This document shows, in pieces, positions 3,759 to 63,750 of a stretch of DNA of 64,000 bases; the stretch's first letter is position 1; the number at the start of each line of letters is the position of its first letter. A model generated the notes under the pieces. It worked only from the letters and a program-made list of their open reading frames with translations. It was not told where the DNA came from and made no database searches. The position numbers and the translations under genes were made by a program. The stretch comes from a virus, in UHGV virus genome UHGV-0287696; one strand, given 5' to 3'.

Positions 3759-3902
3759 ATGATTTCTGTAAAACACAAAAAAGCTATCTTCGGTGTTGTT
3801 ATCGCTGTTGTTCTGGGTTGCCTGTATCTGGACATCGACAAAGGCTACGACACTTGCATCGACAACGGTAATTCCGTTGCACAGTGCACTGGTCGTGGTT
3901 AA
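3759..3902 (+). CDS. small membrane protein (47 aa), likely highly expressed early gene
   Basis: ATG at 3759 with RBS TAGGAG; MISVKHKKAIFGVVIAVVLGCLYLDIDKGYDTCIDNGNSVAQCTGRG; optimal-codon rich; below the 60-aa track cutoff; flanked by promoter motif and terminator. Confidence 0.5.
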   Translation: MISVKHKKAIFGVVIAVVLGCLYLDIDKGYDTCIDNGNSVAQCTGRG

Positions 3903-4772: not shown

Positions 4773-4776
4773 AAGC

Positions 4777-4822
4777 AACCCCTAATCCTTTTCGGGATTA
4801 GGGGTACACTTTATTTATTTTC
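4777..4822 (+). terminator. intrinsic terminator
   Basis: acccctaatcc-ttttc-gggattaggggt hairpin plus T-rich tract. Confidence 0.6.
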
Positions 4823-4848
4823 GCAAATTCAACATAGGGGATAAGTTC

Positions 4849-4977
4849 ATGAAACATGAACTGTTGTTTCGACGGTTAAACGAGTTGTCCGTAAAACAGC
4901 TCGAATTTCAACGAAGGGTTAGTGAAATAGCGCAACCAACGTTAACACAGCCCAAGAAACACCCAGTCGGTAGTTGA
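4849..4977 (+). CDS. small protein, putative degenerate member 0 of tandem paralog array
   Basis: 42-aa ORF with RBS AGGGG; KQLEFQRRVSEI resembles KQIQFNQRMDEY of the ORF at 5860; rare codons present. Confidence 0.3.
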   Translation: MKHELLFRRLNELSVKQLEFQRRVSEIAQPTLTQPKKHPVGS

Positions 4978-5026
4978 GAGGGGGTAACAACCTAAAGGGG
5001 GAATGCGCCAACACTCCCCATAGGCG

Positions 5027-5082
5027 CTTTATCTTTTCGAAAGAGAAGTTAAAGCAGTAGGGACTGCCTATACAGTCCCTAC
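5027..5082 (+). promoter_or_regulatory. conserved palindromic leader element plus hairpin (array unit 1)
   Basis: cttttcgaaagagaagttaaagca followed by hairpin gtagggactg...cagtccctac; same architecture at 5345 and 5742. Confidence 0.45.
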
Positions 5083-5138
5083 TTGTCGCTATTACCGGTA
5101 CGTAATAGCTTAATCCCCAACTCGTGTGAGGTTTTAAC

Positions 5139-5309
5139 ATGACTAACAACAATACACGTATCTTTACTTCTATCTCAAACAGCTATGCAGAACAAGCGAG
5201 GTTTAATGAACGACTAAGAGAGGTTCAACAACTCGGATTAAATAAAAGGCTTAAAGCCTCTAACAATCCTCGAGTACAGATCTTCACCGAAAGGAGAAGT
5301 AACTACTAA
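5139..5309 (+). CDS. small basic protein, tandem paralog 1 (56 aa)
   Basis: RBS GAGGT; MTNNNTRIFTSISNSYAEQARFNERLREVQQLGLNKRLKASNNPRVQIFTERRSNY; shares QLG(L/M)(N/D)KRLK...QIFTE(R/K)RS with paralog 2. Confidence 0.45.
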   Translation: MTNNNTRIFTSISNSYAEQARFNERLREVQQLGLNKRLKASNNPRVQIFTERRSNY

Positions 5310-5316
5310 ATAAAAT

Positions 5317-5341
5317 AAAGGGGTGCTGTCACACCCCTTTT
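5317..5341 (+). terminator. hairpin (weak terminator) after paralog 1
   Basis: aaaggggtgctgtcacacccctttt. Confidence 0.4.
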
Positions 5342-5344
5342 CTT

Positions 5345-5403
5345 AGCTTTAACTTTTCGAAAAGAGAAGTTAAAGCAGGGTACGCTGGTGCTACAGCGTA
5401 CCC
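5345..5403 (+). promoter_or_regulatory. conserved palindromic leader element plus hairpin (array unit 2)
   Basis: agctttaacttttcgaaaagagaagttaaagca (arms ctttaactt / aagttaaag) followed by hairpin gggtacgctg...cagcgtaccc. Confidence 0.45.
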
Positions 5404-5465
5404 TTTACAGCACCACCACGTTTCCGTAGTGGATTTCTTTAATCACCCTACAAAGAGGGCTTACC

Positions 5466-5639
5466 ATGAACAATGGTTACTACTTTACTGACAAAATGCT
5501 TGCAGAACAGAGTGCAGCAAAGACCAATTTACAGCAACGTATCTACAAGTATAGTCAGCTCGGCATGGATAAACGGTTAAAACCGTCTACCAACCGTTTC
5601 ACGCAGATATTCACCGAAAAGAGGAGTGAACACTACTAA
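5466..5639 (+). CDS. small basic protein, tandem paralog 2 (57 aa)
   Basis: RBS AGAGGG; MNNGYYFTDKMLAEQSAAKTNLQQRIYKYSQLGMDKRLKPSTNRFTQIFTEKRSEHY; differences from paralog 1 are partly synonymous. Confidence 0.45.
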   Translation: MNNGYYFTDKMLAEQSAAKTNLQQRIYKYSQLGMDKRLKPSTNRFTQIFTEKRSEHY

Positions 5640-5712
5640 CAAATAAAGAGGAGGCGTGTCAGCGCCTCCCCTCCTCGTACAGTAACCTGCCGAGATGGTG
5701 GTCGTAGGTATA

Positions 5713-5741
5713 AAAAAGGGTGCTTCACCACCCCTTTTCTT
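5713..5741 (+). terminator. hairpin (weak terminator) after paralog 2
   Basis: aaaaagggtgcttcaccaccccttttc. Confidence 0.4.
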
Positions 5742-5799
5742 AGCTTTAACTTTTCCGAAGAGAAGTTAAAGCAGCAGAGACTGTTCCGCCAGTCTCTGC
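5742..5799 (+). promoter_or_regulatory. conserved palindromic leader element plus hairpin (array unit 3)
   Basis: agctttaacttttccgaagagaagttaaagca followed by hairpin gcagagactg...cagtctctgc. Confidence 0.45.
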
Positions 5800-5830
5800 T
5801 GTACGGTGTCAACACATAAAGTTGTTGACG

Positions 5831-5840
5831 TTTTTACAAC
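5831..5840 (+). promoter_or_regulatory. TTTTTACAAC motif (candidate second promoter class)
   Basis: Exact 10-mer also at 32079 and 37613, each 20-45 bp upstream of a start codon. Confidence 0.25.
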
Positions 5841-5859
5841 ATTACGAAAGGTAATGAAA

Positions 5860-6021
5860 ATGAACGAATATCAAATACAGATGTTCAATACCGCGATGCG
5901 AAATCGTGAGAAACAAATTCAGTTTAACCAACGCATGGACGAATATGTTCGTCTCGGCCTCGTTGCGGCACCGAAAACGGTTAACAACCACAATGTTCAC
6001 CAACCACCTGTAAGGAGATAA
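5860..6021 (+). CDS. small basic protein, tandem paralog 3 (53 aa)
   Basis: ATG at 5860 after GAAAGG; MNEYQIQMFNTAMRNREKQIQFNQRMDEYVRLGLVAAPKTVNNHNVHQPPVRR; track start 5806 is an upstream GTG. Confidence 0.4.
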   Translation: MNEYQIQMFNTAMRNREKQIQFNQRMDEYVRLGLVAAPKTVNNHNVHQPPVRR

Positions 6022-6163
6022 GTTACTAACTAATAAAGGGGGTGTTGCTACCACCCCCTGCTTAGTTCGGTAGTTGTTTTCCATTCATAATTAATAGTCT
6101 TCTGTTTTTTTTTGCTTTCCGAGACGCATAAGGGGTTATAGGGGGAGCCGAAGCTCCCCAGAC

Positions 6164-7726
6164 TCAAAAGAGTTCGTCACCCATGCCGCCGGTAAATACG
6201 TTAATCGACGAGGCTGTTACAGTTTCTTCTTTATCACAATCCCATGGCAAAATGCCAACATCACGGAAAGGTATTACAGTATAATGATAAGCTTCTTTGG
6301 TATCAATAATTGTACGGTGTTTACCGCGTTGTACTTCTAAATAGCTGTGTCCGCTGACGACACGTTTGTTAAAATACATCTCACCGTCAGCTTCGTTGTC
6401 TAAGCTAGAGCAGTTGTCGTAAAGACCACGACCAGGTAAGCTCTTACAGAAACTTGCTGGGTCGAGTGCTTTTAATTTTTTGCCTTCTGGTGAGATTTGG
6501 TGTGGTGCTAAGAGGAAACCACGATTACGTACCACTTGGATGTTTCGCGCGATACGATAAATTTCTTTAATGTCACTACCCGCAATACCGTTACCGTGCC
6601 CTGCTTTGCTGATAGTACCGAAATAGTCTCCGCGTATTCCAGCTACATGATAACCTCGACGTTTTAAATCTAAAATCAAATCATTCAAATAGTGAATTTT
6701 AAAATCGGAGTTTGTGTGTTTTTGGAAAATATACTCCCAACCGTTTGCCCGCATTTTACTACAGAGGTAATCTGACATTTGTGCATTGTGTAGCGCTTTT
6801 TCTTCGTCAGTTGCCGTTTCAGGTGCAACCATTACCGGAGCTGTACCTTCAAAGTGTCCGTAAAGTGCTTGATACGCGTAAGCCAAGTTAACATCTAATT
6901 CGTTTTCTAAACTTAAATCCAGAATAACCGGTTGTAAGTCACCTTTAACATTTGCCATCACCTTTTCTGGGGTGTTGAATACAGGAATGCTAATAGAGAG
7001 CAATAAACTGAATAATGACTTACAGTTAAAAGGAAGAGCAGGCATTAGCCAGAGTTCTTCGGTGATCCCTTTGTTACAACCGAGCATTTGGTTAATTGCT
7101 TTCCAGCCCGTACGTAACCCGTTCCCTGCTGCTTTCTTACTGATAGAGTCGAATACATGTACGAAGGGTGCTTTATTGTCAGTAATCAATTCCCCTACCA
7201 GAGAAGGAATCTTATTATGAGAGCGTTCACTGAACGTGGATAAGGTATCCTTAAGGTCGTTGAGCGCCGTTTGTAAATCAACACGCGTTTCAGTGCCGTT
7301 CAGTGCGCCTAACGTACGACCCAATTTTTGTTTCAGTTGTACGCCTTGAATAGCTTGACGTAACTGAAAGTAGTATTGTGCTACTTGGCGATTAAGATGC
7401 TCGATGCGTGCTTCTGGTTCTTCTGGAATATCATCTTCCAGGAATTTGGTAATCGTATCGTATAGAGGACGTATTTGCGTAGTGGCCAGTTTCAAACGTT
7501 TCATGACGTTTGTGTGGTCGTAAGGCATACCGCCGTCTATGATGGATGTGATGATATCCTTGATTTCGACGAGGGCGGCACGTTCGTCACCTTCTTCTGC
7601 GTAATCAGGAAGCTTAGCCTCTAACAGCACTTTTCTTATGATGTCGTGGTCCTTTTCAGGATCGGTCAGAAGACTTTCAGCGTATAATGTGGCTAAGGCG
7701 GTTATCAACATCATTTTGTTATTCAT
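6164..7726 (-). CDS. hypothetical protein (520 aa)
   Basis: Long - strand ORF; RBS AAGGA upstream of ATG at 7726; no motif recognised. Confidence 0.6.
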   Translation of the reverse strand: MNNKMMLITALATLYAESLLTDPEKDHDIIRKVLLEAKLPDYAEEGDERAALVEIKDIITSIIDGGMPYDHTNVMKRLKLATTQIRPLYDTITKFLEDDIPEEPEARIEHLNRQVAQYYFQLRQAIQGVQLKQKLGRTLGALNGTETRVDLQTALNDLKDTLSTFSERSHNKIPSLVGELITDNKAPFVHVFDSISKKAAGNGLRTGWKAINQMLGCNKGITEELWLMPALPFNCKSLFSLLLSISIPVFNTPEKVMANVKGDLQPVILDLSLENELDVNLAYAYQALYGHFEGTAPVMVAPETATDEEKALHNAQMSDYLCSKMRANGWEYIFQKHTNSDFKIHYLNDLILDLKRRGYHVAGIRGDYFGTISKAGHGNGIAGSDIKEIYRIARNIQVVRNRGFLLAPHQISPEGKKLKALDPASFCKSLPGRGLYDNCSSLDNEADGEMYFNKRVVSGHSYLEVQRGKHRTIIDTKEAYHYTVIPFRDVGILPWDCDKEETVTASSINVFTGGMGDELF

Positions 7727-15988: not shown

Positions 15989-18706
15989 TTAGAGAGTTTC
16001 GTCGGCGTTGTCGTCTGTACCGGTATCCGTCTCGTCTGTGTCTTCAGCAGAAACGTCTTCTTCCGTTGTCGTATCGGTTTCCGTCGTTTCATCATCAGAC
16101 ATGTCCAAGTCTTCATCACCGCCCATATCGTCACCACCTAAGTCCTCATCGCCCCCTAAGCCACCGTCGTCTTCAGAGCCGCCACCGAAGTCGCTACCCC
16201 CGCCGAAGTTATTGGCGTCCTCAGGATTCAAATCAGCCGCTTTTGCTAAGGTTTCAACTTTACCTGTTGTGCGTTTAGCTAACTGAATCAGCGTCTTCGA
16301 TGCTGCTGCGATTTCATCAGAAATCATCTTGACGTTTTCACCACGTTTATCTTCGTCGTAGATCAAATCAAACAGATCGGTTTCGATGCCTTGATTACGC
16401 AGCCAGTTACGCGTATAGAACGATTTAATCATCGTCTTGAGATCATCATGCTGCATTTCGATACCTTCATTCTGAAGCATATTCGAAATATCGTCGGTAA
16501 CAACCAGATCCGCCAGTTTCTCAATGAACTCATAGCGTTTATCAAACAGATCCGCTTGTGAAGAAGAAGCTGATGTGTCTGGTGGTGGTAAAGTGACCTT
16601 CATACCGTTGATGAACTTCGCCAGATACTCCGACGTTTGTTTGGTCAAGTCTTCACCTGTTACATTAGGATTTTGATTGCGAATATATTCAACAATAATA
16701 CGAACCAACTCTGCTTGTAATTTAGGAGAGGCTTGCAAACTGTTTGTCACGTAGCGTGTTAACGGCGTAGACAGAATTTCTTGTTTCTTCACGATTTGTT
16801 GAGTCACCAGCAGTGACTTGGAATAAATCTGCGAAGCAAATTCCAGGTTTTCCGGCGTCAAAACAAGATCCGGGTCTACACACGCGATGTGACAAGTACG
16901 ACGGAGTAAGTTTTCATCGATTTGTTGATCGGGCACTTTATACTCAGGCGTTGTGTCCGAAACGGACACTTTATGACTGGCGTAGTATTCATTACCCGTC
17001 ACGTTAAATGCAATCCCGGCATTAGCCCCCATCGACCAAGCGTCATTGATATCACCCCACATCGGTAAACGACGGTTATAGGAGTTAAGGATATCCGATT
17101 TAACTTGGTCAACCGTTTTCTGACCGTTCATGTCATCTGGCGATAACTCAATGTCGTATTGCATGTGACGTGCTGAGTTCAACACTGAAGAGTTCATCGT
17201 TGCGAACAACAGCGCCATCCTGACCGTAGAGATGATAAAGGAACGTTCAGTGATAGACACCCCAATACCATCTTCGTTAAAGTCCGTTGCAAAGTAGCAC
17301 AAGTTATTAACCGGGATATAGACAACCTGTGTGTGACGTTTTGCGAGGTGACGTGCCAGCAGAATACGACCGAAAGTTTCGGTAATTTTCATGCTGATTT
17401 CAGCTCCACCCAATGCCTGGCTTAACGCACGGGTAAATTCGTTCTCAGCAATCTCGCTACAACGGGCACTTAAACGGTTGGCGATCTCTGGCGTTATACG
17501 AGAGGTATTACCCAAACCTAAATTAGAGCGGTTGATAATACTGTCCGTCATGCCGTCGTTATTAAGGTAGTTCATAAAGTTCGCGTCCCCGTAAAGTGAA
17601 GAACGTGAGTTGATGAAGTTACCCATATCGTCAATAATGGTCAGAAACCCAATAGGGTTACGAACGTCGTCGCCGATAACCAACGGTGCGGTAGACTCAG
17701 CAGGCAATAGGCATTCGAAATATTCGATTTGGTTGTTTTCATTCATCGAAATAATCGGAATATCGCCATAAGTCTGAGTTTTTGGTGTACCTTTGTACGC
17801 TTCGTTCAGATCACCTAAGTTAATGAAGCCTTTTTCAGCCGCGTCACGCTGACGATCGTTAAACTGTTGATTAACTTCATACGGCGTGGCACCTGTCGGT
17901 GTGGCAGGCTTTTCATATGCGGCTTGCTCTAATTGGCCGTAGAGACCAGTACGTGCGTTCTCATGCGCGATTCGACGATAAGCATGGGGTAGTAACGTGA
18001 TACGTGGGTTGTCGGTGATCGAGATGTCCATTTCGAACTTATCTGAGAACATCTTATCGTGGTTACTGAAATTGATTTTCAGTGATTGTGGTCCTTTAAC
18101 AGGCCCACGGACACGACTCAGAATAGATTCCACACCCACCCGTTGCCCGTCATCTTGCCCGTTGATTGGACCGAGAATACCGAGCTGTTCTTCGAAATAG
18201 GCAGCTTGAGAACGACGTACGGATTCGGTAGCGACTTTGGCGTCTAAACCGAACAACTGGTCAAATCCGTTGTCCGAGATTATCATCACTGGACTTGCGC
18301 CTTTTGTTTTTAACGCGTCGTAAATCCACTGATATAATTTCTTAGGTAATTGACGCACGTTATCATGATAATCACGCGTTGGTGTCAGTAGGTCATTACG
18401 TAAGTCAATTGGAATGTCTGCGATGTTGTCGTAAATCAACGTGGTGTTGATTAAGTCTTTTGTCGACAGCAAGCTCGAAGTTGCAATGGTAACAATCGTT
18501 TCGAGTTCAGGTAACGCATCAAAGATACGTTCCGCATTTTTGATAGTACGAATACGCGAACTTACAATTCCTGCAAGTTCCTGACGTGTTGGCGTAGAAC
18601 CACCCTCGCTACGCGTACCGCGTTGTTGCTGGGGTGCTGGGCCCGTAGTTTTACGAAGAATTGCAGCTACGGCGGGGTCGCCCGTTAATTTACTAATATC
18701 GTCCAT
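15989..18706 (-). CDS. large virion protein, putative portal protein
   Basis: 905-aa - strand ORF a few genes from the putative capsid gene; C-terminal ~80 aa extremely acidic (GGDEDLGGDDMGGDEDLDMSDDETTETD...); size consistent with the ~100-kDa portals of phiKZ-like phages as I recall them; no motif proof. Confidence 0.4.
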   Translation of the reverse strand: MDDISKLTGDPAVAAILRKTTGPAPQQQRGTRSEGGSTPTRQELAGIVSSRIRTIKNAERIFDALPELETIVTIATSSLLSTKDLINTTLIYDNIADIPIDLRNDLLTPTRDYHDNVRQLPKKLYQWIYDALKTKGASPVMIISDNGFDQLFGLDAKVATESVRRSQAAYFEEQLGILGPINGQDDGQRVGVESILSRVRGPVKGPQSLKINFSNHDKMFSDKFEMDISITDNPRITLLPHAYRRIAHENARTGLYGQLEQAAYEKPATPTGATPYEVNQQFNDRQRDAAEKGFINLGDLNEAYKGTPKTQTYGDIPIISMNENNQIEYFECLLPAESTAPLVIGDDVRNPIGFLTIIDDMGNFINSRSSLYGDANFMNYLNNDGMTDSIINRSNLGLGNTSRITPEIANRLSARCSEIAENEFTRALSQALGGAEISMKITETFGRILLARHLAKRHTQVVYIPVNNLCYFATDFNEDGIGVSITERSFIISTVRMALLFATMNSSVLNSARHMQYDIELSPDDMNGQKTVDQVKSDILNSYNRRLPMWGDINDAWSMGANAGIAFNVTGNEYYASHKVSVSDTTPEYKVPDQQIDENLLRRTCHIACVDPDLVLTPENLEFASQIYSKSLLVTQQIVKKQEILSTPLTRYVTNSLQASPKLQAELVRIIVEYIRNQNPNVTGEDLTKQTSEYLAKFINGMKVTLPPPDTSASSSQADLFDKRYEFIEKLADLVVTDDISNMLQNEGIEMQHDDLKTMIKSFYTRNWLRNQGIETDLFDLIYDEDKRGENVKMISDEIAAASKTLIQLAKRTTGKVETLAKAADLNPEDANNFGGGSDFGGGSEDDGGLGGDEDLGGDDMGGDEDLDMSDDETTETDTTTEEDVSAEDTDETDTGTDDNADETL

Positions 18707-57318: not shown

Positions 57319-58167
57319 ATGTCTCTTACGTCAAAACAGAAACTGCTAAAACTCATCAACACTGAAAACAATATTGTTCCGCCATTGACCTTCAGTGATG
57401 TTGATATCGGCGAACCTACTGGTACTGGGGTTGATACCCAGGTGGTTCTGACTTCTAAACTCAAAGGCGATGAGTCTACTACTTTAACTGTGACTTATCA
57501 TCGTCGTAATTTGCCCGAATACCTAACAGGTGAGTTGGTATTCGGTAACGATGGTGTTGTAACCGCTACAGATTTGCTTAATGCAATCAACGCAAAATAC
57601 GATTTAAATATCCTGCCGTCGGATATCGTTGATGCGAAAGTTGAAGGTGAAACCCATCAGCTTACCGCTAACGAGAAATCCTACGAATGGTGTGGCGAGG
57701 TGACACTTACGCTACGCGACCCTATTGATTTGGCTAAACTGTTACCTGTTACTCAATTAGAAAACCTGGTAGAGTATCCGTCCACTAAGAAAGGTAACGC
57801 AGCGGTTTATTCTTATCCAATTGACTTCACCGCAGAAAAAGATTACCTCGATCCGATTACCATTAACGACACTGTCGACCTGGCTGAGTTAGCCACTAAA
57901 CTGGTCAACGTCGTTGATGAGAAATGGGTAAGTGTACCTAAAAACGCTGCTAATAACCTCTACGGTGCTAAGGTTATCTACGATGGCCCTACCGCAGGTT
58001 ACGAAGGCGCAAATACGAAGTACACGCGTGTGCTGGTACTCGCACTCAGTGGACTGTGTGCTAACCTGACCGGTAATCTGTTAATCCACTTTAACGGTAC
58101 CGATCGTCCGAAGTCGAAGATTGAATTAGCTAAAACTAATTCGGTCTTACCGGGATTCTTAGATTAA
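57319..58167 (+). CDS. virion-type protein, member of recurrent domain family
   Basis: N-terminal LLKLINTENNIVPPLTFSDVDIGEP..VDTQVVLTSK..TVTYHRRNL..DLLNAINAKYDLNILPSDIVD matches the family signature. Confidence 0.5.
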   Translation: MSLTSKQKLLKLINTENNIVPPLTFSDVDIGEPTGTGVDTQVVLTSKLKGDESTTLTVTYHRRNLPEYLTGELVFGNDGVVTATDLLNAINAKYDLNILPSDIVDAKVEGETHQLTANEKSYEWCGEVTLTLRDPIDLAKLLPVTQLENLVEYPSTKKGNAAVYSYPIDFTAEKDYLDPITINDTVDLAELATKLVNVVDEKWVSVPKNAANNLYGAKVIYDGPTAGYEGANTKYTRVLVLALSGLCANLTGNLLIHFNGTDRPKSKIELAKTNSVLPGFLD

Positions 58168-58180
58168 GAGGATTACAGTA

Positions 58181-58657
58181 ATGACCAGTCAAGAAACTAT
58201 CTTCGACCTTATTAAAAAGGCTAACCCAGACGCTGAGCTCGACACCGCCAAAGTTACATTGGGTGAGCCCGTCGTAAGTACCGGTGCGTACAACACCGAA
58301 GTTACGGTTGCGTCAATTAAGAATCTCGGTTATGCTAATAAGCAAACGTTCCAGTATAACCGCATTGATGCAGGTTTGTATTTCCTCAACGTATTGCCGA
58401 AACTGTTAGTTGAATCAGCAACTACGACTGCGGACCTGTTGCCTGTAATTAACGAACAATATGGCTTAACCCTTACTGAAGACGACGTATGGGTAGAGCA
58501 GGTTGGTGAGTTACCGCTGGACGGCAGTACAATCGAGCACGGCATTTTCTTCCGTCCTGAGTGCCTAACCTGGGTCGGTGGTTTTACAGTGCGCGTTGCG
58601 CGTAAGCCGACTGTTGAAACACCGCCAGCTAATCCATCGCGCGCTAAGAAGAAATAA
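58181..58657 (+). CDS. virion-type protein, member of recurrent domain family
   Basis: IFDLIKKANPDAELDTAKVTLGEP..NTEVTVASIK..FQYNRIDAG..DLLPVINEQYGLTLTEDDVWV. Confidence 0.5.
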   Translation: MTSQETIFDLIKKANPDAELDTAKVTLGEPVVSTGAYNTEVTVASIKNLGYANKQTFQYNRIDAGLYFLNVLPKLLVESATTTADLLPVINEQYGLTLTEDDVWVEQVGELPLDGSTIEHGIFFRPECLTWVGGFTVRVARKPTVETPPANPSRAKKK

Positions 58658-58718: not shown

Positions 58719-59309
58719 ATGGCCGAACGTTGGACTAAAGAAGGTATTATTGCTTCGAAAACAGATTTAGAAGGCGGGTACGTAAACGACCCTGACGATA
58801 AAGGTGGGGAAACCTGTCACGGTGTAACACTAACAACTGCGCGCGAATACGGGTATAAAGGAAGAATGAAGGATCTGACCCGTGCGCAAGCGTTTGATAT
58901 TTACGATCGCGGTTGGTGGAAGAAACTTAAACTCGATGAGATTTTAGCTATCTCACCCTTACTCGCAGACCGGATGTTTGATTTTGCTATTAACTCTGGC
59001 CGCGTTAACTGCGTGAAATCGTTACAACGTATTCTCAACGTTTTAAATAACGAAGGGAAACTTTACGCAGATATTGACACCGACGGCGGTATGGGACCTA
59101 AAACGCTAGGTGCCCTGAATGCTTATCTGAATTACCGTAAAGACGAAGGATTAGGCATCTTAATCTTTGCCTTAATCTCACACCAGGTAACTTACTACAC
59201 AGAAATCTCCGAAAAGCGTAAGAAGAATGAAAAATTCGCTTACGGCTGGTACGCACGTGTGTTCAGGGAAATGCCGGATTATGTGGCGAAGGCGGGGTTA
59301 GTAAAATGA
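58719..59309 (+). CDS. endolysin, GH108-type N-terminal domain plus peptidoglycan-binding domain
   Basis: EGGYVNDPDDKGGETCHGVT is the GH108 signature (catalytic Glu in EGGY); C-terminal ...DTDGGMGPKTLGALNAYL resembles PG_binding_3; RBS AGAGGAG. Confidence 0.8.
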   Translation: MAERWTKEGIIASKTDLEGGYVNDPDDKGGETCHGVTLTTAREYGYKGRMKDLTRAQAFDIYDRGWWKKLKLDEILAISPLLADRMFDFAINSGRVNCVKSLQRILNVLNNEGKLYADIDTDGGMGPKTLGALNAYLNYRKDEGLGILIFALISHQVTYYTEISEKRKKNEKFAYGWYARVFREMPDYVAKAGLVK

Positions 59310-59410
59310 ACTGGTTTGCTAAACTCTTAGCGTTATTGTGGAAAGCGTTAACGTCTGGGCGGAAACGTAAAGACGAAAAGCGTGGATACGAATTTTTCTG
59401 GTTTCTATAA
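59306..59410 (+). CDS. small amphipathic peptide (34 aa) overlapping endolysin stop
   Basis: ATGA overlap; MNWFAKLLALLWKALTSGRKRKDEKRGYEFFWFL; below the track size cutoff. Confidence 0.3.
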   Translation: MNWFAKLLALLWKALTSGRKRKDEKRGYEFFWFL

Positions 59411-59425: not shown

Positions 59426-60091
59426 ATGGAGAAGCTTCAATATAAACGTTTAGACAATAAGTGGTTTGTATTAACGGAGGATTACCATTATCCGTTTACG
59501 TTACGTGAAATTTATCACGACCACGTACACTTAGACCGTGCGGTTTATTTAACGGGTGTATTGCCTGACACACAACTGTGGTTAACGGCACCGAAAGGGT
59601 TCGTTACCGATTTAGCGTCGATTCCTGAACACCTCCAGGGAATCTTCCATCCTGACGGACCGTGGGCACCTGCGGCCTGCATTCACGACCTACTTTATCA
59701 AAAATGTAGTACGGAACGGAGCTATCCCATGACACCGGGTGGTAACGTTTCGCGTTTTATCGATAAAGAGTTCTCTGATTTAACGTTCCTGCGTATTATG
59801 CAGTCGTTGGAAATCTCGCCTTATATCTGCCAAACATTTTATAAGGCCGTCGTTGAATTCGGCTGGGATTCCTACGTAGATCCTAATGCAATGCCATCCT
59901 ACAACACTAACGCGTTTCGTACGTTAGATTACAATCGAAACTATTTATTCGTTCGCGAGTTTAAGGAACCTGCAATCCCTGACCACGAACGTATTGATAT
60001 CACCACAGATCAGCCCGTTAATGTCAAATACCTGAACATCAAACGTGCTTTTCTGTCTGGGAGGGAAGATGTTTCATCCAAATCCGAGTAA
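59426..60091 (+). CDS. DUF1353-like protein
   Basis: ATG 59426 (RBS GGGAAGG); PKGFVTDLASIP and AACIHDLLY match DUF1353 motifs as I recall them. Confidence 0.45.
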   Translation: MEKLQYKRLDNKWFVLTEDYHYPFTLREIYHDHVHLDRAVYLTGVLPDTQLWLTAPKGFVTDLASIPEHLQGIFHPDGPWAPAACIHDLLYQKCSTERSYPMTPGGNVSRFIDKEFSDLTFLRIMQSLEISPYICQTFYKAVVEFGWDSYVDPNAMPSYNTNAFRTLDYNRNYLFVREFKEPAIPDHERIDITTDQPVNVKYLNIKRAFLSGREDVSSKSE

Positions 60092-60584
60092 CTTTAAACT
60101 CAAAGAGTTAGTACCACAGTCTTATATTGCCAAATACGGCGATTCTGCAATTCGGTTTATGAATCCGCTGTTAATGATTTCGCTACAACAGATTCGTAAC
60201 CGTTTCGGTAGAATGGTCATTAACTCAACCGCTGCGCAACAGCGTGGCCTAAGAACCTTAGACTTCTTTATTAATCAAGAAAAGCCTAAAGGCGGTAACT
60301 ATAAACAACGTGCTTTACAACTCTACTCTGATTCAGGAAGTCAACACAAATTCGGTAACGCAATTGACGCAACGTTGTTGGACAGTACCGTAAAGCAGGT
60401 TCACGACTACATCGCTGCTAACCCTGATGAGTTTCCGTTCATTCACTTTATTGAATGTGACATCAGTTGGTTACACATCGACGTTCGTAACCAACCTAAC
60501 ATTACTTTCTGGTCACCGAATCGCGGTACTGTGAAAGTGGTTAAGCAAAAACCAATCGACTGGAGCGCCTTAGTCGAGATTTAA
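60069..60584 (+). CDS. peptidase M15-like (zinc D-Ala-D-Ala carboxypeptidase/endopeptidase fold), putative second peptidoglycan hydrolase
   Basis: ATG 60069; SQHKFGNAIDA fits SxHxxGxAxD and WLHIDVR fits the C-terminal H-x-D zinc ligand motif of M15 peptidases. Confidence 0.45.
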   Translation: MFHPNPSNFKLKELVPQSYIAKYGDSAIRFMNPLLMISLQQIRNRFGRMVINSTAAQQRGLRTLDFFINQEKPKGGNYKQRALQLYSDSGSQHKFGNAIDATLLDSTVKQVHDYIAANPDEFPFIHFIECDISWLHIDVRNQPNITFWSPNRGTVKVVKQKPIDWSALVEI

Positions 60585-60669
60585 CTATTTCTAAGGTGTT
60601 TATACCTTATTTCGTATAAAGACGCTTAGAATGCGTTCTACGCACGATTTGGCGGTTAAAATGAATATA

Positions 60670-60706
60670 CCCTACTCCTTAACGGGAGTAGGGTAGTTTT
60701 TATTAT
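60670..60706. terminator. hairpin terminator shared by convergent genes
   Basis: ccctactcc-ttaac-gggagtaggg followed by tagtttttatt; abuts the stop of the - strand lipoprotein gene. Confidence 0.6.
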
Positions 60707-61182
60707 TCCGCAGGATGGAGCATTGTTCCGGTGTCAGGAGCTACGCCTTCCTTACAGTGGAAGAAAGTAATGCCTTTACCATCACCCGTTTTATATTCTA
60801 AAGTAGAATACGCAAACGTTGGCGTTTTTGAAAGTAACCCATTTACACGGTAGTAACGTTGCCCCGTGATAGGATCGATATTTCCATTAACTTTACCTAA
60901 TAAATCTTTATAAAGTTGGGGTGACTCAATCTTACCATTTGGCCAAGTGGCTACCCAGTTAGCGCCAGTATCGATTACAGTTACTGAACCTAACATTAGG
61001 TTAGTCGAACTGACGACAGGTTTGTAATTTACAAAATCCTGCTCTACACCCATACAGGTGTAAATAACCATGTCGTGTGGCTCTACGGGTACAGTTGAGA
61101 ATTGGCCATTACTATTCGGTTGTAAAGCACATCCTGCTAATGAAAAAACACCAACCATAGCGATAAGAAAACGTTTTAGCAT
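60703..61182 (-). CDS. putative lipoprotein (moron; possible superinfection exclusion factor)
   Basis: Start at internal ATG (MLKRFLIAMVGVFSLAGC, lipobox LAGC) with RBS AAGGTG; only - strand gene inside a + strand block. Confidence 0.5.
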   Translation of the reverse strand: MLKRFLIAMVGVFSLAGCALQPNSNGQFSTVPVEPHDMVIYTCMGVEQDFVNYKPVVSSTNLMLGSVTVIDTGANWVATWPNGKIESPQLYKDLLGKVNGNIDPITGQRYYRVNGLLSKTPTFAYSTLEYKTGDGKGITFFHCKEGVAPDTGTMLHPAE

Positions 61183-61320
61183 GTTTTCACCTTTTATAAA
61201 AAAGTTAAAAATAATAATTTTACAGACGACCCTTACTGCCATCTGTCATAACTATTAAAACCACTTCTATAATCCGAACAATACTATGCAATCCACCCTG
61301 CCACACACGAGGTAAAAACG

Positions 61321-61866
61321 ATGGCTAAAGCTTTCAATCTGCAGCTCATTGAAGCTGTTAAAGCTAAAAACCCTGAAACTGCTTCTAAACTGACCGTAAA
61401 TGATGTCGATTTCGGGGCCGTAGAAGCTTACACCCCGACCGGTAAAAGCGACGCCCGTAACACTAAAGTTGTCCTGACAGCGAAGAGCACGAGTGCTAAC
61501 TTCACCGGTAATAAAGAATTTCATTACATCCGTCTGGCATCCGCTAACCTGATTGGGGCCAAAGCTTACCAGCAGGAAGGTAGCCTCGACCTGGAAAATG
61601 ACGCCATCGTAACCAAACTCAATCAAGAAATGGTTACTAAAGGTTATGCCGATGACGCGTTCGCTGTAGGTGAACTCACTATTGAGAAAACTAATGGCGA
61701 GAGCGGTGCTAAGGTTTACACTATCAAAGTAAACGAAGGTCACATCAAATTCTTAGCCGGTACCATTGCTACCTTCACCTATACCAACCCGGTTCCTCCG
61801 AAGGTAGCTCTGAGCGGCCTGGAAGGTGAACTGGATGGTTTCACCGCACCGTCTCCTAAAGAGTAA
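61321..61866 (+). CDS. abundant virion-type protein, member of recurrent domain family
   Basis: Strongly optimised codons; QLIEAVKAKNPETASKLTVNDVDFGA..NTKVVLTAK..FHYIRLA..GELDGFTAPS. Confidence 0.55.
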   Translation: MAKAFNLQLIEAVKAKNPETASKLTVNDVDFGAVEAYTPTGKSDARNTKVVLTAKSTSANFTGNKEFHYIRLASANLIGAKAYQQEGSLDLENDAIVTKLNQEMVTKGYADDAFAVGELTIEKTNGESGAKVYTIKVNEGHIKFLAGTIATFTYTNPVPPKVALSGLEGELDGFTAPSPKE

Positions 61867-61869
61867 TTA

Positions 61870-61904
61870 AATCGGGGAGGGGGTAACCTCCCCGATATTT
61901 CTTT
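61870..61904 (+). terminator. intrinsic terminator
   Basis: atcggggagg-gggtaa-cctccccgat followed by atttcttt. Confidence 0.6.
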
Positions 61905-61931
61905 AACTCGTACTATTAAGGATTTAAGATA

Positions 61932-62462
61932 ATGGCAGCTACTAACCAGATGATGTTGGTCGCGCTTTACAATGCTGCTAACACCGAGCTACCACATCAG
62001 GTAACTGATAAAGAAGTGTCCTTTGGTCTCCCTACTGCGCTGGAAGGCGAAGGTAAGAATACCAAAGTTACCATGACTGCACTACCAGGTTCTGAGAATT
62101 TCAAAGGCGCAATCGAACTGAAATACGATCGTCTGGAACCGGGTGTTGTAGGGCGTATTGAACTAACTGACGATCTGTCTCGTTGGGAAGATCAAAACGA
62201 ATTGCGCGCATGGTTACAATATTACATCAATAAAGTTAAACCGGACGATGCTATTCATCCAGCGGACGTTTCTTATTCTACCGAAGACCAGAAAGACGAA
62301 CATGAAAACGTCACTCTGCGTACGGTAACGTGCACCGTTACTGAAAAGAACCTCCGTTATAAACCAGGTGTAATGGCAACTTTCGTAATTACGCCGAAAG
62401 TTGTTGATAATCGTATTGACCTGGCCACCACCAACGGTGAGCTGGACGGCTTTACGTCCTAA
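61932..62462 (+). CDS. abundant virion-type protein, member of recurrent domain family
   Basis: Optimised codons; MLVALYNAANTELPHQVTDKEVSFGLP..NTKVTMTAL..LKYDRLE..GELDGFTS. Confidence 0.55.
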   Translation: MAATNQMMLVALYNAANTELPHQVTDKEVSFGLPTALEGEGKNTKVTMTALPGSENFKGAIELKYDRLEPGVVGRIELTDDLSRWEDQNELRAWLQYYINKVKPDDAIHPADVSYSTEDQKDEHENVTLRTVTCTVTEKNLRYKPGVMATFVITPKVVDNRIDLATTNGELDGFTS

Positions 62463-62521
62463 GAAAAAAATAAAAAATACCTACCTCCTATTACGGGAGG
62501 TAGGTATACTATTTTTTTTTT
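62463..62521. terminator. bidirectional intrinsic terminator
   Basis: A-run, hairpin atacctacctcc-tattac-gggaggtaggtat, T-run; between convergent genes. Confidence 0.75.
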
Positions 62522-62530
62522 CGCTGTCGA

Positions 62531-63202
62531 TTACAGCCCTTGCTCTAACGCAAACGCTTTAATTGAATCGTAATCACGTGCTTCAGCCCAAGCCCTGACT
62601 TCTCTTTTCTGCTCAGACATTGCGTGGTGTAGTCTTTGATCGCGCTCAACGATTGCTGCCAGCAACGTCTTGCACTGTTCTAACGTAAACGGTTCGATAC
62701 GGGTGTTGTTAGCCGTTAACCAATACGCAGGCGCAGTTTCTGACTGGATATAACGACTCAGTGCTACCTGTGACTTCTCATCTGCCTGGAAAGTGAAATC
62801 ACCTACCTGAATCTCAGCATAGCGTGCATCTTGATAACGGAATTCCAAAGCGCTTAGAATTTTCTGAACATCGGTAAAGATGTACCGCACCGTGGAACGT
62901 AAACCTGTACGAATTTCTTCCAGGTCAATCCCCAACGTGTCGTTAACAAAGTCTTTCGCTTTCTGTAGCGTAAACCGTGCTTCGATTTCAGACATGTCGT
63001 AGTTACGCATTTGTTCCAATGCTTCGCGATCAGACATCCCATCAATCAACTTATAGTGCAGTAACGCACAAAACCCTGTACGGCCGTGATCTTCGCTACC
63101 GATTTTCTCCATGTAGTTACCATGGCGGTCAATCGGTAAATCGTGCGCAAAATAACGGCGACGGATTTCTTCTTTCGTTAAGCCTTCACCAGTAGCAGAC
63201 AT
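62531..63202 (-). CDS. hypothetical protein
   Basis: 223-aa - strand ORF with strong RBS AAAGGAG upstream of ATG 63202. Confidence 0.5.
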   Translation of the reverse strand: MSATGEGLTKEEIRRRYFAHDLPIDRHGNYMEKIGSEDHGRTGFCALLHYKLIDGMSDREALEQMRNYDMSEIEARFTLQKAKDFVNDTLGIDLEEIRTGLRSTVRYIFTDVQKILSALEFRYQDARYAEIQVGDFTFQADEKSQVALSRYIQSETAPAYWLTANNTRIEPFTLEQCKTLLAAIVERDQRLHHAMSEQKREVRAWAEARDYDSIKAFALEQGL

Positions 63203-63750
63203 TCATCGTCTCCTTTAATCAACCCTAATTCGATTAACAGTTCAAAATCGATATGACGGAATCTTGTGTCGAAGTCCGATTCCCAATCGATACGGATACC
63301 CTGGCATTCTTCTGGCGTTAGCTCAGGAAAAATCACGCTATTAAATTTCTCCCGCTCATCGTAAAACCCATCAATCGGTGAGTTCGGGTTACGTGTTGCG
63401 AAGATAGTAATGCCGGGGAAGGACAATGCCAACACAGTGATAGATTCTGCGCTGGGTTCGCTTAAAGAGCGGCGTAGAAACGCAATTTTGTGACGTGGGA
63501 AATCCAATACCCGTTCTTCAAACCCTGGGTTACGTTTTTCAATTTCCGCGACCGACAGGTCAGTAAGTTCGGTGCAGTACATTGGGATGATTACAGTCAC
63601 ACCGTGACGTATCAGCAAGCGTTTTACGTCATCGGTAAAATCTTCACCGTTAATCACCACATAACAACCGAATAGCTTACTGTTTTCCAGAAACTTATCC
63701 AGAAGTCGAATTCTACGCTTCGTAATATTGTTGATCAGAATTGGTTTCAT
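63178..63750 (-). CDS. hypothetical protein
   Basis: 190-aa - strand ORF overlapping the downstream gene start by 25 nt. Confidence 0.5.
   Translation of the reverse strand: MKPILINNITKRRIRLLDKFLENSKLFGCYVVINGEDFTDDVKRLLIRHGVTVIIPMYCTELTDLSVAEIEKRNPGFEERVLDFPRHKIAFLRRSLSEPSAESITVLALSFPGITIFATRNPNSPIDGFYDEREKFNSVIFPELTPEECQGIRIDWESDFDTRFRHIDFELLIELGLIKGDDECLLLVKA

Follow-up and report, generated by a model that had tools for sequence, protein, structure and literature searches.

In the virus genome UHGV-0287696, of which a stretch of 64,000 nucleotides (the window) has been analysed, the open reading frame (ORF) at positions 60703-61182 on the minus strand is the sole long minus-strand ORF from 18.7 to 62.5 kb. 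The locus raises the questions of what this isolated gene encodes and what it does for the phage. A preliminary description of the DNA presented it as the only minus-strand gene of its region, a lipoprotein "moron" placed between hairpin terminators. Its solitary position is confirmed for long ORFs between 18.7 and 62.5 kb, but not for the window as a whole, in which minus-strand genes are also found at 6164-7726, 15989-18706 and 62531-63750; two minus-strand genes start just 68 nt past the next-but-one gene after the lipoprotein gene. The ORF is a genuine gene, and the lipoprotein gene is real, well-defined, conserved and hitherto uncharacterised. At a late stage of infection, its product is likely to modify the envelope of the cell and, by analogy with the Llp lipoprotein of phage T5, superinfection exclusion or receptor masking appears to be its most plausible function.

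Protein-level searches assign the window to a chimallivirus, a nucleus-forming jumbo phage of the SPN3US-like group, which comprises Seoulvirus and its relatives. At the DNA level, its sole match is a segment of 400 nt with 75% identity to the Salmonella phages STsAS and SPAsTU. The identical lipoprotein sequence is present in public assemblies on contigs of up to ~164 kb, and close variants of it are present on contigs of 220-227 kb. Comparison with the closest relatives (close alleles) gives a ratio of nonsynonymous to synonymous substitution rates (dN/dS) of 0.07-0.10, which indicates purifying selection and therefore a functional gene. The coding sequence of 159 codons starts at 61182, a start on which the public gene callers agree, and a Shine-Dalgarno sequence, GGTGA (61187-61191, minus strand), lies 4 nt 5' of this ATG. 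The same element is kept upstream of the start codon in close relatives as AAGGTGA or GGGTGA.

The N-terminus of the protein, MLKRFLIAMVGVFSLAGC, has the features of the PROSITE pattern PS51257, which was applied as a lipobox, a cysteine at position 15-35 and a lysine or arginine among the first seven residues. In this case, K3 and R4 are followed by an uncharged h-region and by L-A-G-C, with the cysteine at position 18. The signal peptide comprises residues 1-17 (61182-61132), and cleavage by signal peptidase II is predicted between MLKRFLIAMVGVFSLAG and the lipidated Cys18, which is encoded at 61131-61129 and followed by alanine at +2. The pattern is present in 24/24 full-length relatives, and Cys18 is invariant in alignments A3 and A4. 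The +2 residue of these relatives is A, S, T or V and never aspartate. In Enterobacterales, the absence of aspartate at +2 directs lipoproteins to the outer membrane (the "+2 rule"). Just one other ORF of the 64 kb carries a signal of this type. The lipoprotein signal of the preliminary description is thus borne out, and the canonical, family-wide lipobox identifies the product, at the level of sequence, as a lipoprotein exported by Sec and processed by signal peptidase II.

The protein has a sole family match, PHROG 9559 (E 2e-66), a family with no assigned function. Scans against Pfam, NCBIfam and PADLOC have returned nothing beyond an NCBIfam signal-peptide match. Homologues have been found by tblastn in 55 phage records, among them those of SPN3US (gp159), Goslar (gp88), STsAS and numerous jumbo phages of Erwinia. 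The SPN3US, Goslar and Erwinia homologues span 33-59% identity to the protein of the window, with Goslar gp88 at 33%. These proteins, some of which are entered simply as "Lipoprotein" in Erwinia phages, are true homologues with a common lipobox, two cysteines and the barrel described below. An exhaustive profile search of 1.84 billion proteins found 13 representatives, and those with an identifiable lineage all come from jumbo phages of Enterobacterales, which restricts the family to this phage group. No functional study has been found in the literature on SPN3US gp159, SPN3US spanins or jumbo-phage exclusion lipoproteins.

Across 21 diverse members of the family, the invariant residues are the acylation site Cys18, Cys43, Cys143, G73, R109, Y111, S126, G133 and G135. 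A segment, ESPQLYKDLLGK, is nearly invariant within the SPN3US/Erwinia branch. Each of the full-length sequences (24/24) has exactly two cysteines besides that of the lipobox. An AlphaFold model built from 17 sequences has a mean predicted local distance difference test score (pLDDT) of 83.9, with the core blocks, residues 31-140, mostly above 90. In the predicted architecture, a signal helix is joined by a short linker to a closed barrel of ~10 strands, so that the mature part, encoded within 60703-61182 on the minus strand, would be a beta-barrel of ~140 aa. Cys43 lies in the first long strand and Cys143 in the last strand of this predicted barrel. Based on these strand positions in the model, we infer that a Cys43-Cys143 disulfide may close the barrel in the periplasm. 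The C-terminus, KEGVAPDTGTMLHPAE, is not hydrophobic. Fold matches of the model are generic only, and a BFVD search has returned nothing outside the protein's own family. Among the closest known systems are the small eight-stranded barrel lipoproteins of Gram-negative bacteria (the NHBA C-domain, the TbpB, fHbp and HpuA barrels, YceI and BT_2261). Sequence and profile searches also produced matches to pyrroline-5-carboxylate reductase structures in the PDB, with E values of 0.016 or weaker, which have been treated as noise.

The gene has no compositional mark of recent arrival that would fit a moron: its G+C content is 0.410, against 0.442 +/- 0.032 for the window, which is ordinary. From the comparison of relatives, its position and orientation are kept across several genera and its homologues occur throughout the 55 phage records, which together with purifying selection describes a clade-conserved gene and not a moron. 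The corresponding explanation, a horizontally acquired moron expressed from a host sigma-70 promoter near a TATAAT, draws on the isolated opposite-strand unit and on a perfect TATAAT upstream of the gene. The hexamer is indeed present, at 61268-61273, one base away from where it had first been placed. It lies on the strand opposite the lipoprotein gene and faces the neighbouring gene, a sigma-70 scan found no -35 partner for it, and it is not conserved in the upstream regions of relatives. TATAAT occurs at chance level in the window, with 26 sites against 40.5 +/- 6.7 in shuffled sequences, and is not enriched. Furthermore, phage phiKZ, the relative of this phage family that has been studied, transcribes its genes independently of the host RNA polymerase (PMC7598289). 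With clade conservation and native composition added, host-driven expression of an acquired moron is extremely improbable, and neither the term moron nor the reading of TATAAT as a promoter is retained.

A different promoter is suggested by conservation. The late promoter of the phiKZ non-virion RNA polymerase (nvRNAP) is a bare 5'-TATG-3' with the transcription start at its G; the TATG is read by the beta-like subunit, and the downstream sequence matters in a way that is undefined (PMC7598289, PMC12809450). Upstream of the lipoprotein gene, a TATGAC is located at 61245-61250 on the minus strand, and its G at 61247 would be the start of a transcript with a 65-nt leader. The hexamer has been found, by alignment or inspection, in 15/15 distinct upstream regions of the SPN3US/Erwinia type, 32-67 nt before the ATG, in surroundings that cannot be aligned between genera. 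The Goslar counterpart, 37 nt upstream of its gene, is TATGGA. By conservation and by analogy with phiKZ, TATGAC is predicted to act as a phage nvRNAP promoter with its start at G61247. An alternative start codon, ATG 61242, which would give an ORF of 179 aa, falls 5 nt past this predicted transcription start and inside a 5' hairpin, has no Shine-Dalgarno sequence and is unused by the gene callers; it has been rejected.

This hairpin is the sole structure within 61183-61320. It is a stem-loop of 9 bp at 61222-61247 (minus strand; -11.6 kcal/mol; z = -4.4 against shuffled sequences), which starts at +2 of the predicted lipoprotein mRNA. A stem-loop that begins at +1 to +4 is possible in 15/16 distinct lineages, with differing stem sequences. 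It could be a stabiliser of the mRNA 5' end, or part of the undefined downstream determinant of the nvRNAP promoter. On the other strand, the divergent gene has a TATG of its own at 61285-61288, with a predicted start at G61288, 33 nt before its ATG at 61321; in alignment A2, the complementary TGCATA on the lipoprotein strand is invariant, and its CATA core is found in four further Erwinia relatives.

At the 3' side of the lipoprotein gene, a G+C-rich hairpin of 11-12 pairs at 60668-60695, with a T-rich tail on both strands, resembles a bidirectional intrinsic terminator. It is common to the two convergent genes, the lipoprotein gene and the LAS-peptidase-like gene, and an equivalent hairpin is located 3' of SPN3US gp159. 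The second of the two flanking terminators that had been described is not found: there is no terminator hairpin 5' of the lipoprotein gene, and the nearest ones, at 61871-61896 and 62477-62507, lie past the neighbouring gene. The earlier view of an independently transcribed gene is upheld, with another promoter motif than the one first named. The lipoprotein gene forms a single-gene transcription unit on the opposite strand, with its own TATGAC motif and an end at the bidirectional terminator. Among its relatives, too, the gene is always a unit of its own.

The neighbours of this unit suggest two kinds of context, host recognition and lysis. The divergent partner (61321-61866, plus strand; PF25613) is a DUF7941 paralogue of the chimallivirus fibre/filament family. 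A 2026 preprint has shown that DUF7941 proteins assemble into long baseplate-anchored filaments with carbohydrate-binding domains, for which a role in host recognition has been proposed (bioRxiv 10.64898/2026.04.21.720040). Four DUF7941 paralogues, at 57319-58657 and 61321-62462 on the plus strand, flank the lysis and lipoprotein genes of the window. In every SPN3US/Erwinia lineage that was examined, Asesino, Kwan, ChrisDB and Huxley included, the divergent neighbour of the lipoprotein gene is a DUF7941 gene. In addition, the window and the genomes of SPN3US, STsAS, Asesino and Kwan have the lipoprotein gene adjoining a module that encodes a GH108 endolysin, a peptide of ~34 aa and a DUF1353 protein, to which a LAS-type peptidase has been added in some phages only. 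In the Machinavirus phages ChrisDB and Huxley, the endolysin module is located elsewhere and is inverted, and the lipoprotein gene is still divergent from a DUF7941 gene. In Goslar, the gene follows the tail-fibre and fibre-assembly genes, between DUF7941 genes, and is co-oriented with the fibre genes. Comparison of the lineages thus shows that the stable linkage is to host-recognition genes, not to lysis genes.

This comparison bears directly on whether the protein serves lysis, as a spanin substitute that helps to disrupt the outer membrane or as a regulator that times this disruption, in concert with the GH108 endolysin, the 34-aa peptide and the LAS-type peptidase nearby. The adjacent module in five of these genomes would agree with such a role, as would a late-type promoter motif, and no two-component spanin pair has been seen in the 64 kb. 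Spanins (the Rz1-type o-spanin, the u-spanin gp11 of T1) are likewise phage lipoproteins of the outer membrane, and the gene studied here is adjacent to an endolysin gene in some lineages. The lipoprotein gene is, however, a separate unit on the opposite strand with no adjacent i-spanin; its product has no C-terminal transmembrane segment, and the folded barrel of 140 aa in the model would be unlike a short Pro-rich o-spanin with its largely unstructured periplasmic domain. Its linkage to lysis genes is not conserved, being lost in Machinavirus and Goslar, where that to DUF7941 persists.

The pattern of sequence divergence also separates the gene from the lysis genes. In comparison with the next phage group, the lipoprotein is 71-73% identical with saturated synonymous divergence, and the products of the adjoining endolysin, DUF1353 and peptidase genes are 91-98% identical. 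Such divergence beside conserved neighbours indicates that alleles have been replaced between close phages. A replacement pattern of this kind is also seen in the DUF7941 and DUF4376 genes nearby; it is typical of host-interaction modules and unlike the pattern of the conserved lysis genes. Of the DUF7941 copies, that at 61321-61866 varies most among close phages, with 49-84% identity, consistent with a host-range role. Taken together, a lysis function of the lipoprotein is unlikely, though it retains some probability.

The convergent gene at 60045-60584 (plus strand) has been assigned to PHROG 894, "endolysin". Its product contains two motifs, SQHKFGNAID and WLHID, that are taken as characteristic of LAS/M15 zinc peptidases, and is 97-98% identical among close relatives, with a dN/dS of 0.02. 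Small amounts of the SPN3US orthologue, gp158, have been detected in preparations of particles but none in tailless ones, and the product of the convergent gene may be a tail-associated cell-wall hydrolase. Such a neighbour invites the idea that the lipoprotein is a periplasmic inhibitor of peptidoglycan hydrolases, comparable in function to T4 Spackle or to an MliC/PliC lipoprotein, and that it would block the tail lysin of an incoming phage. The low level of gp158 in particles agrees with this idea, but homologues of gp158 are missing in Asesino, Kwan, Machinavirus and Goslar, all of which retain the lipoprotein. The lipoprotein has neither a Pfam match nor a specific fold match to MliC/PliC, and with the better model PhiA has dropped out of the top 60 fold matches. 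An inhibitor of this kind is accordingly very improbable.

Based on these observations, we tentatively favour, with a probability placed somewhat below even, a late outer-membrane lipoprotein that is transcribed by the nvRNAP and blocks adsorption or entry, similar to Llp in function and from an unrelated family. According to this proposal, the phage nvRNAP would initiate transcription at G61247 of the TATG during the middle or late phase and produce an mRNA with a 65-nt leader capped by the 5' hairpin. The product would be exported, lipidated and sorted to the outer membrane by Lol, its barrel stapled by the Cys43-Cys143 disulfide. The barrel would then bind a component of the envelope on which adsorption or genome entry depends, so that later particles are stopped and progeny are spared from waste on cell debris. 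The link to host recognition on which this proposal draws is supported by Machinavirus and Goslar, which keep the DUF7941 linkage away from the endolysin module. The narrow distribution of the family, the host-range-like divergence of the gene and the "Non-virion" score of SPN3US gp159 also speak for this reading.

The comparison with T5 Llp, made already in the preliminary description, applies to the architecture of the divergent genes but not to homology. Llp, the "lytic conversion lipoprotein", blocks the receptor FhuA. Both proteins are lipoproteins of virulent phages encoded by single-gene units. The llp gene is divergent from the host-recognition gene oad (pb5) across a short intergenic region with back-to-back promoters, and the role proposed here, a block of re-adsorption with protection of progeny, is the same. 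An hhalign comparison of the lipoprotein alignment (A1) with T5 Llp, on the other hand, aligned only 19 columns, all within the signal peptide, at a probability of 24%. The mature part of Llp has 61 aa, against a predicted barrel of ~140 aa, and llp is expressed from an early promoter of the host polymerase, where a late-type motif of the phage nvRNAP is found here.

Several points weigh against an Llp-like block of adsorption or entry. The conserved promoter-like motif belongs to the late class, whereas classic exclusion proteins, Llp among them, are early-acting. The intergenic regions of the window show no enrichment of TATG (10 observed, ~15 expected), and because of this the promoter assignment rests on phylogenetic footprinting and the phiKZ analogy. 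SPN3US has been reported to use flagella, and it is not obvious how a lipoprotein of the outer membrane would mask these. The last point is the mass spectrometry of Goslar virions, in which gp88 was found at an estimated 491-1158 copies per virion equivalent after purification in caesium chloride (CsCl), indicating a possible virion-associated role.

Goslar gp88 was detected with 20 peptides and 77.8% coverage and is the fourth most abundant unmodelled virion-associated protein. It has been described just as a high-copy virion-associated protein with unassigned function (bioRxiv 10.64898/2026.04.21.720040), and the word "lipoprotein" is absent from the main text of that paper. Together with the position of the gene in a fibre gene cluster, these copy numbers argue for a true virion-associated protein that binds the particle, for example its DUF7941 fibre cloud or its tail fibres, after lysis or otherwise. 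The same preparation contains many host envelope proteins: in the part of its peptide table that covers peptides beginning with A to D, there are at least 19 rows for OmpA, at least 29 for OmpC and at least 17 for OmpF, along with at least 11 for EF-Tu and at least 4 for GroEL. The Goslar authors themselves note that nucleus fragments and PhuZ filaments co-purify (bioRxiv 10.64898/2026.04.21.720040). In SPN3US, gp159 is essentially absent from purified particles; it was classed as "Non-virion", one replicate set containing 3 spectra and the other none, compared with 1750 spectra of gp160, and it does not appear in the 2016 particle table. By comparison, gp160, the orthologue of the product of 61321-61866, is a very abundant particle protein. 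A lipoprotein exported by Sec would also be topologically apart from virion assembly in the cytoplasm. The simplest reading is that gp88 in the Goslar preparation represents co-purified outer-membrane material, and a true virion-associated protein is quite unlikely.

The processing state of gp88 has been considered from the same data. The unmodified CATLEGLPNLDK peptide is not among the peptides beginning with A to D in the Goslar table, and a coverage of 77.8% is compatible with several peptide sets as regards the presence of the signal peptide. A further proposal, which we consider improbable, is that the lipoprotein is carried on released particles, its barrel binding the DUF7941 fibre cloud or the tail fibres after lysis, as hundreds of copies per particle or as tethered patches of outer membrane. 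This would explain the abundance of gp88 among "virion" proteins despite its lipoprotein export signal. If true, the particle-bound lipoprotein would keep the receptor-binding sites covered until the particle encounters a new host, or would alter host range.

The gene is of wider relevance, since nucleus-forming jumbo phages have been studied mostly for intracellular events and their remodelling of the host envelope is almost uncharted. For phages under development for therapy, it provides a candidate gene that may exclude superinfecting phages or protect progeny, and exclusion affects the design of phage cocktails. The published Goslar "virion" protein, one of the most abundant, can be re-read as a possible outer-membrane passenger with a lipoprotein signal. 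For transcription, the TATGAC-plus-hairpin element, which is kept from SPN3US to the Erwinia phages and is replaced in Goslar by TATGGA ahead of a gene co-oriented with the fibre genes, is a compact example for defining nvRNAP promoters beyond TATG.

Some additional small ORFs have been observed in the window. The peptide of the endolysin module is encoded by an ORF of 34 aa at 59306-59410 (plus strand; MNWFAKLLALLWKALTSGRKRKDEKRGYEFFWFL), which overlaps the GH108 endolysin gene at its stop codon. Asesino, Kwan, ChrisDB and Huxley likewise have small ORFs at this place, and the peptide is a candidate for a holin-like or membrane-disrupting lysis peptide. The second lipobox ORF, at 3759-3902 on the plus strand, encodes 47 aa with predicted cleavage between MISVKHKKAIFGVVIAVVLG and the lipobox cysteine; its mature part has 27 aa with 3 cysteines, and a hairpin terminator follows the gene. 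It has been found by tblastn in 56 phage records of the same clade, where it is annotated throughout as hypothetical. The ORF is of o-spanin size, with no i-spanin seen adjacent to it. An otherwise empty gap of 1.4 kb at 4773-6163 (plus strand) contains three small paralogous ORFs (5139-5309, 5466-5639 and 5806-6021) that share the motif ...R..E..QLG..KRLK.S.N....IFTE.RS.

Two homologues of the lipoprotein from public collections, P0015 and P0020, resemble a block-shuffled SPN3US gp159, with segments in reversed order and 7 matched stretches in HMMER; they are probably assembly or annotation artefacts of the public collection. Another homologue, P0002, with 71% identity, bears the name of a Salmonella enterica serovar Agona protein. 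Near-complete genomes of the phage type of the window (L005, L006 and L009; 220-225 kb) are located inside NCBI genome assemblies, which suggests that the phage was carried in the sequenced cultures.
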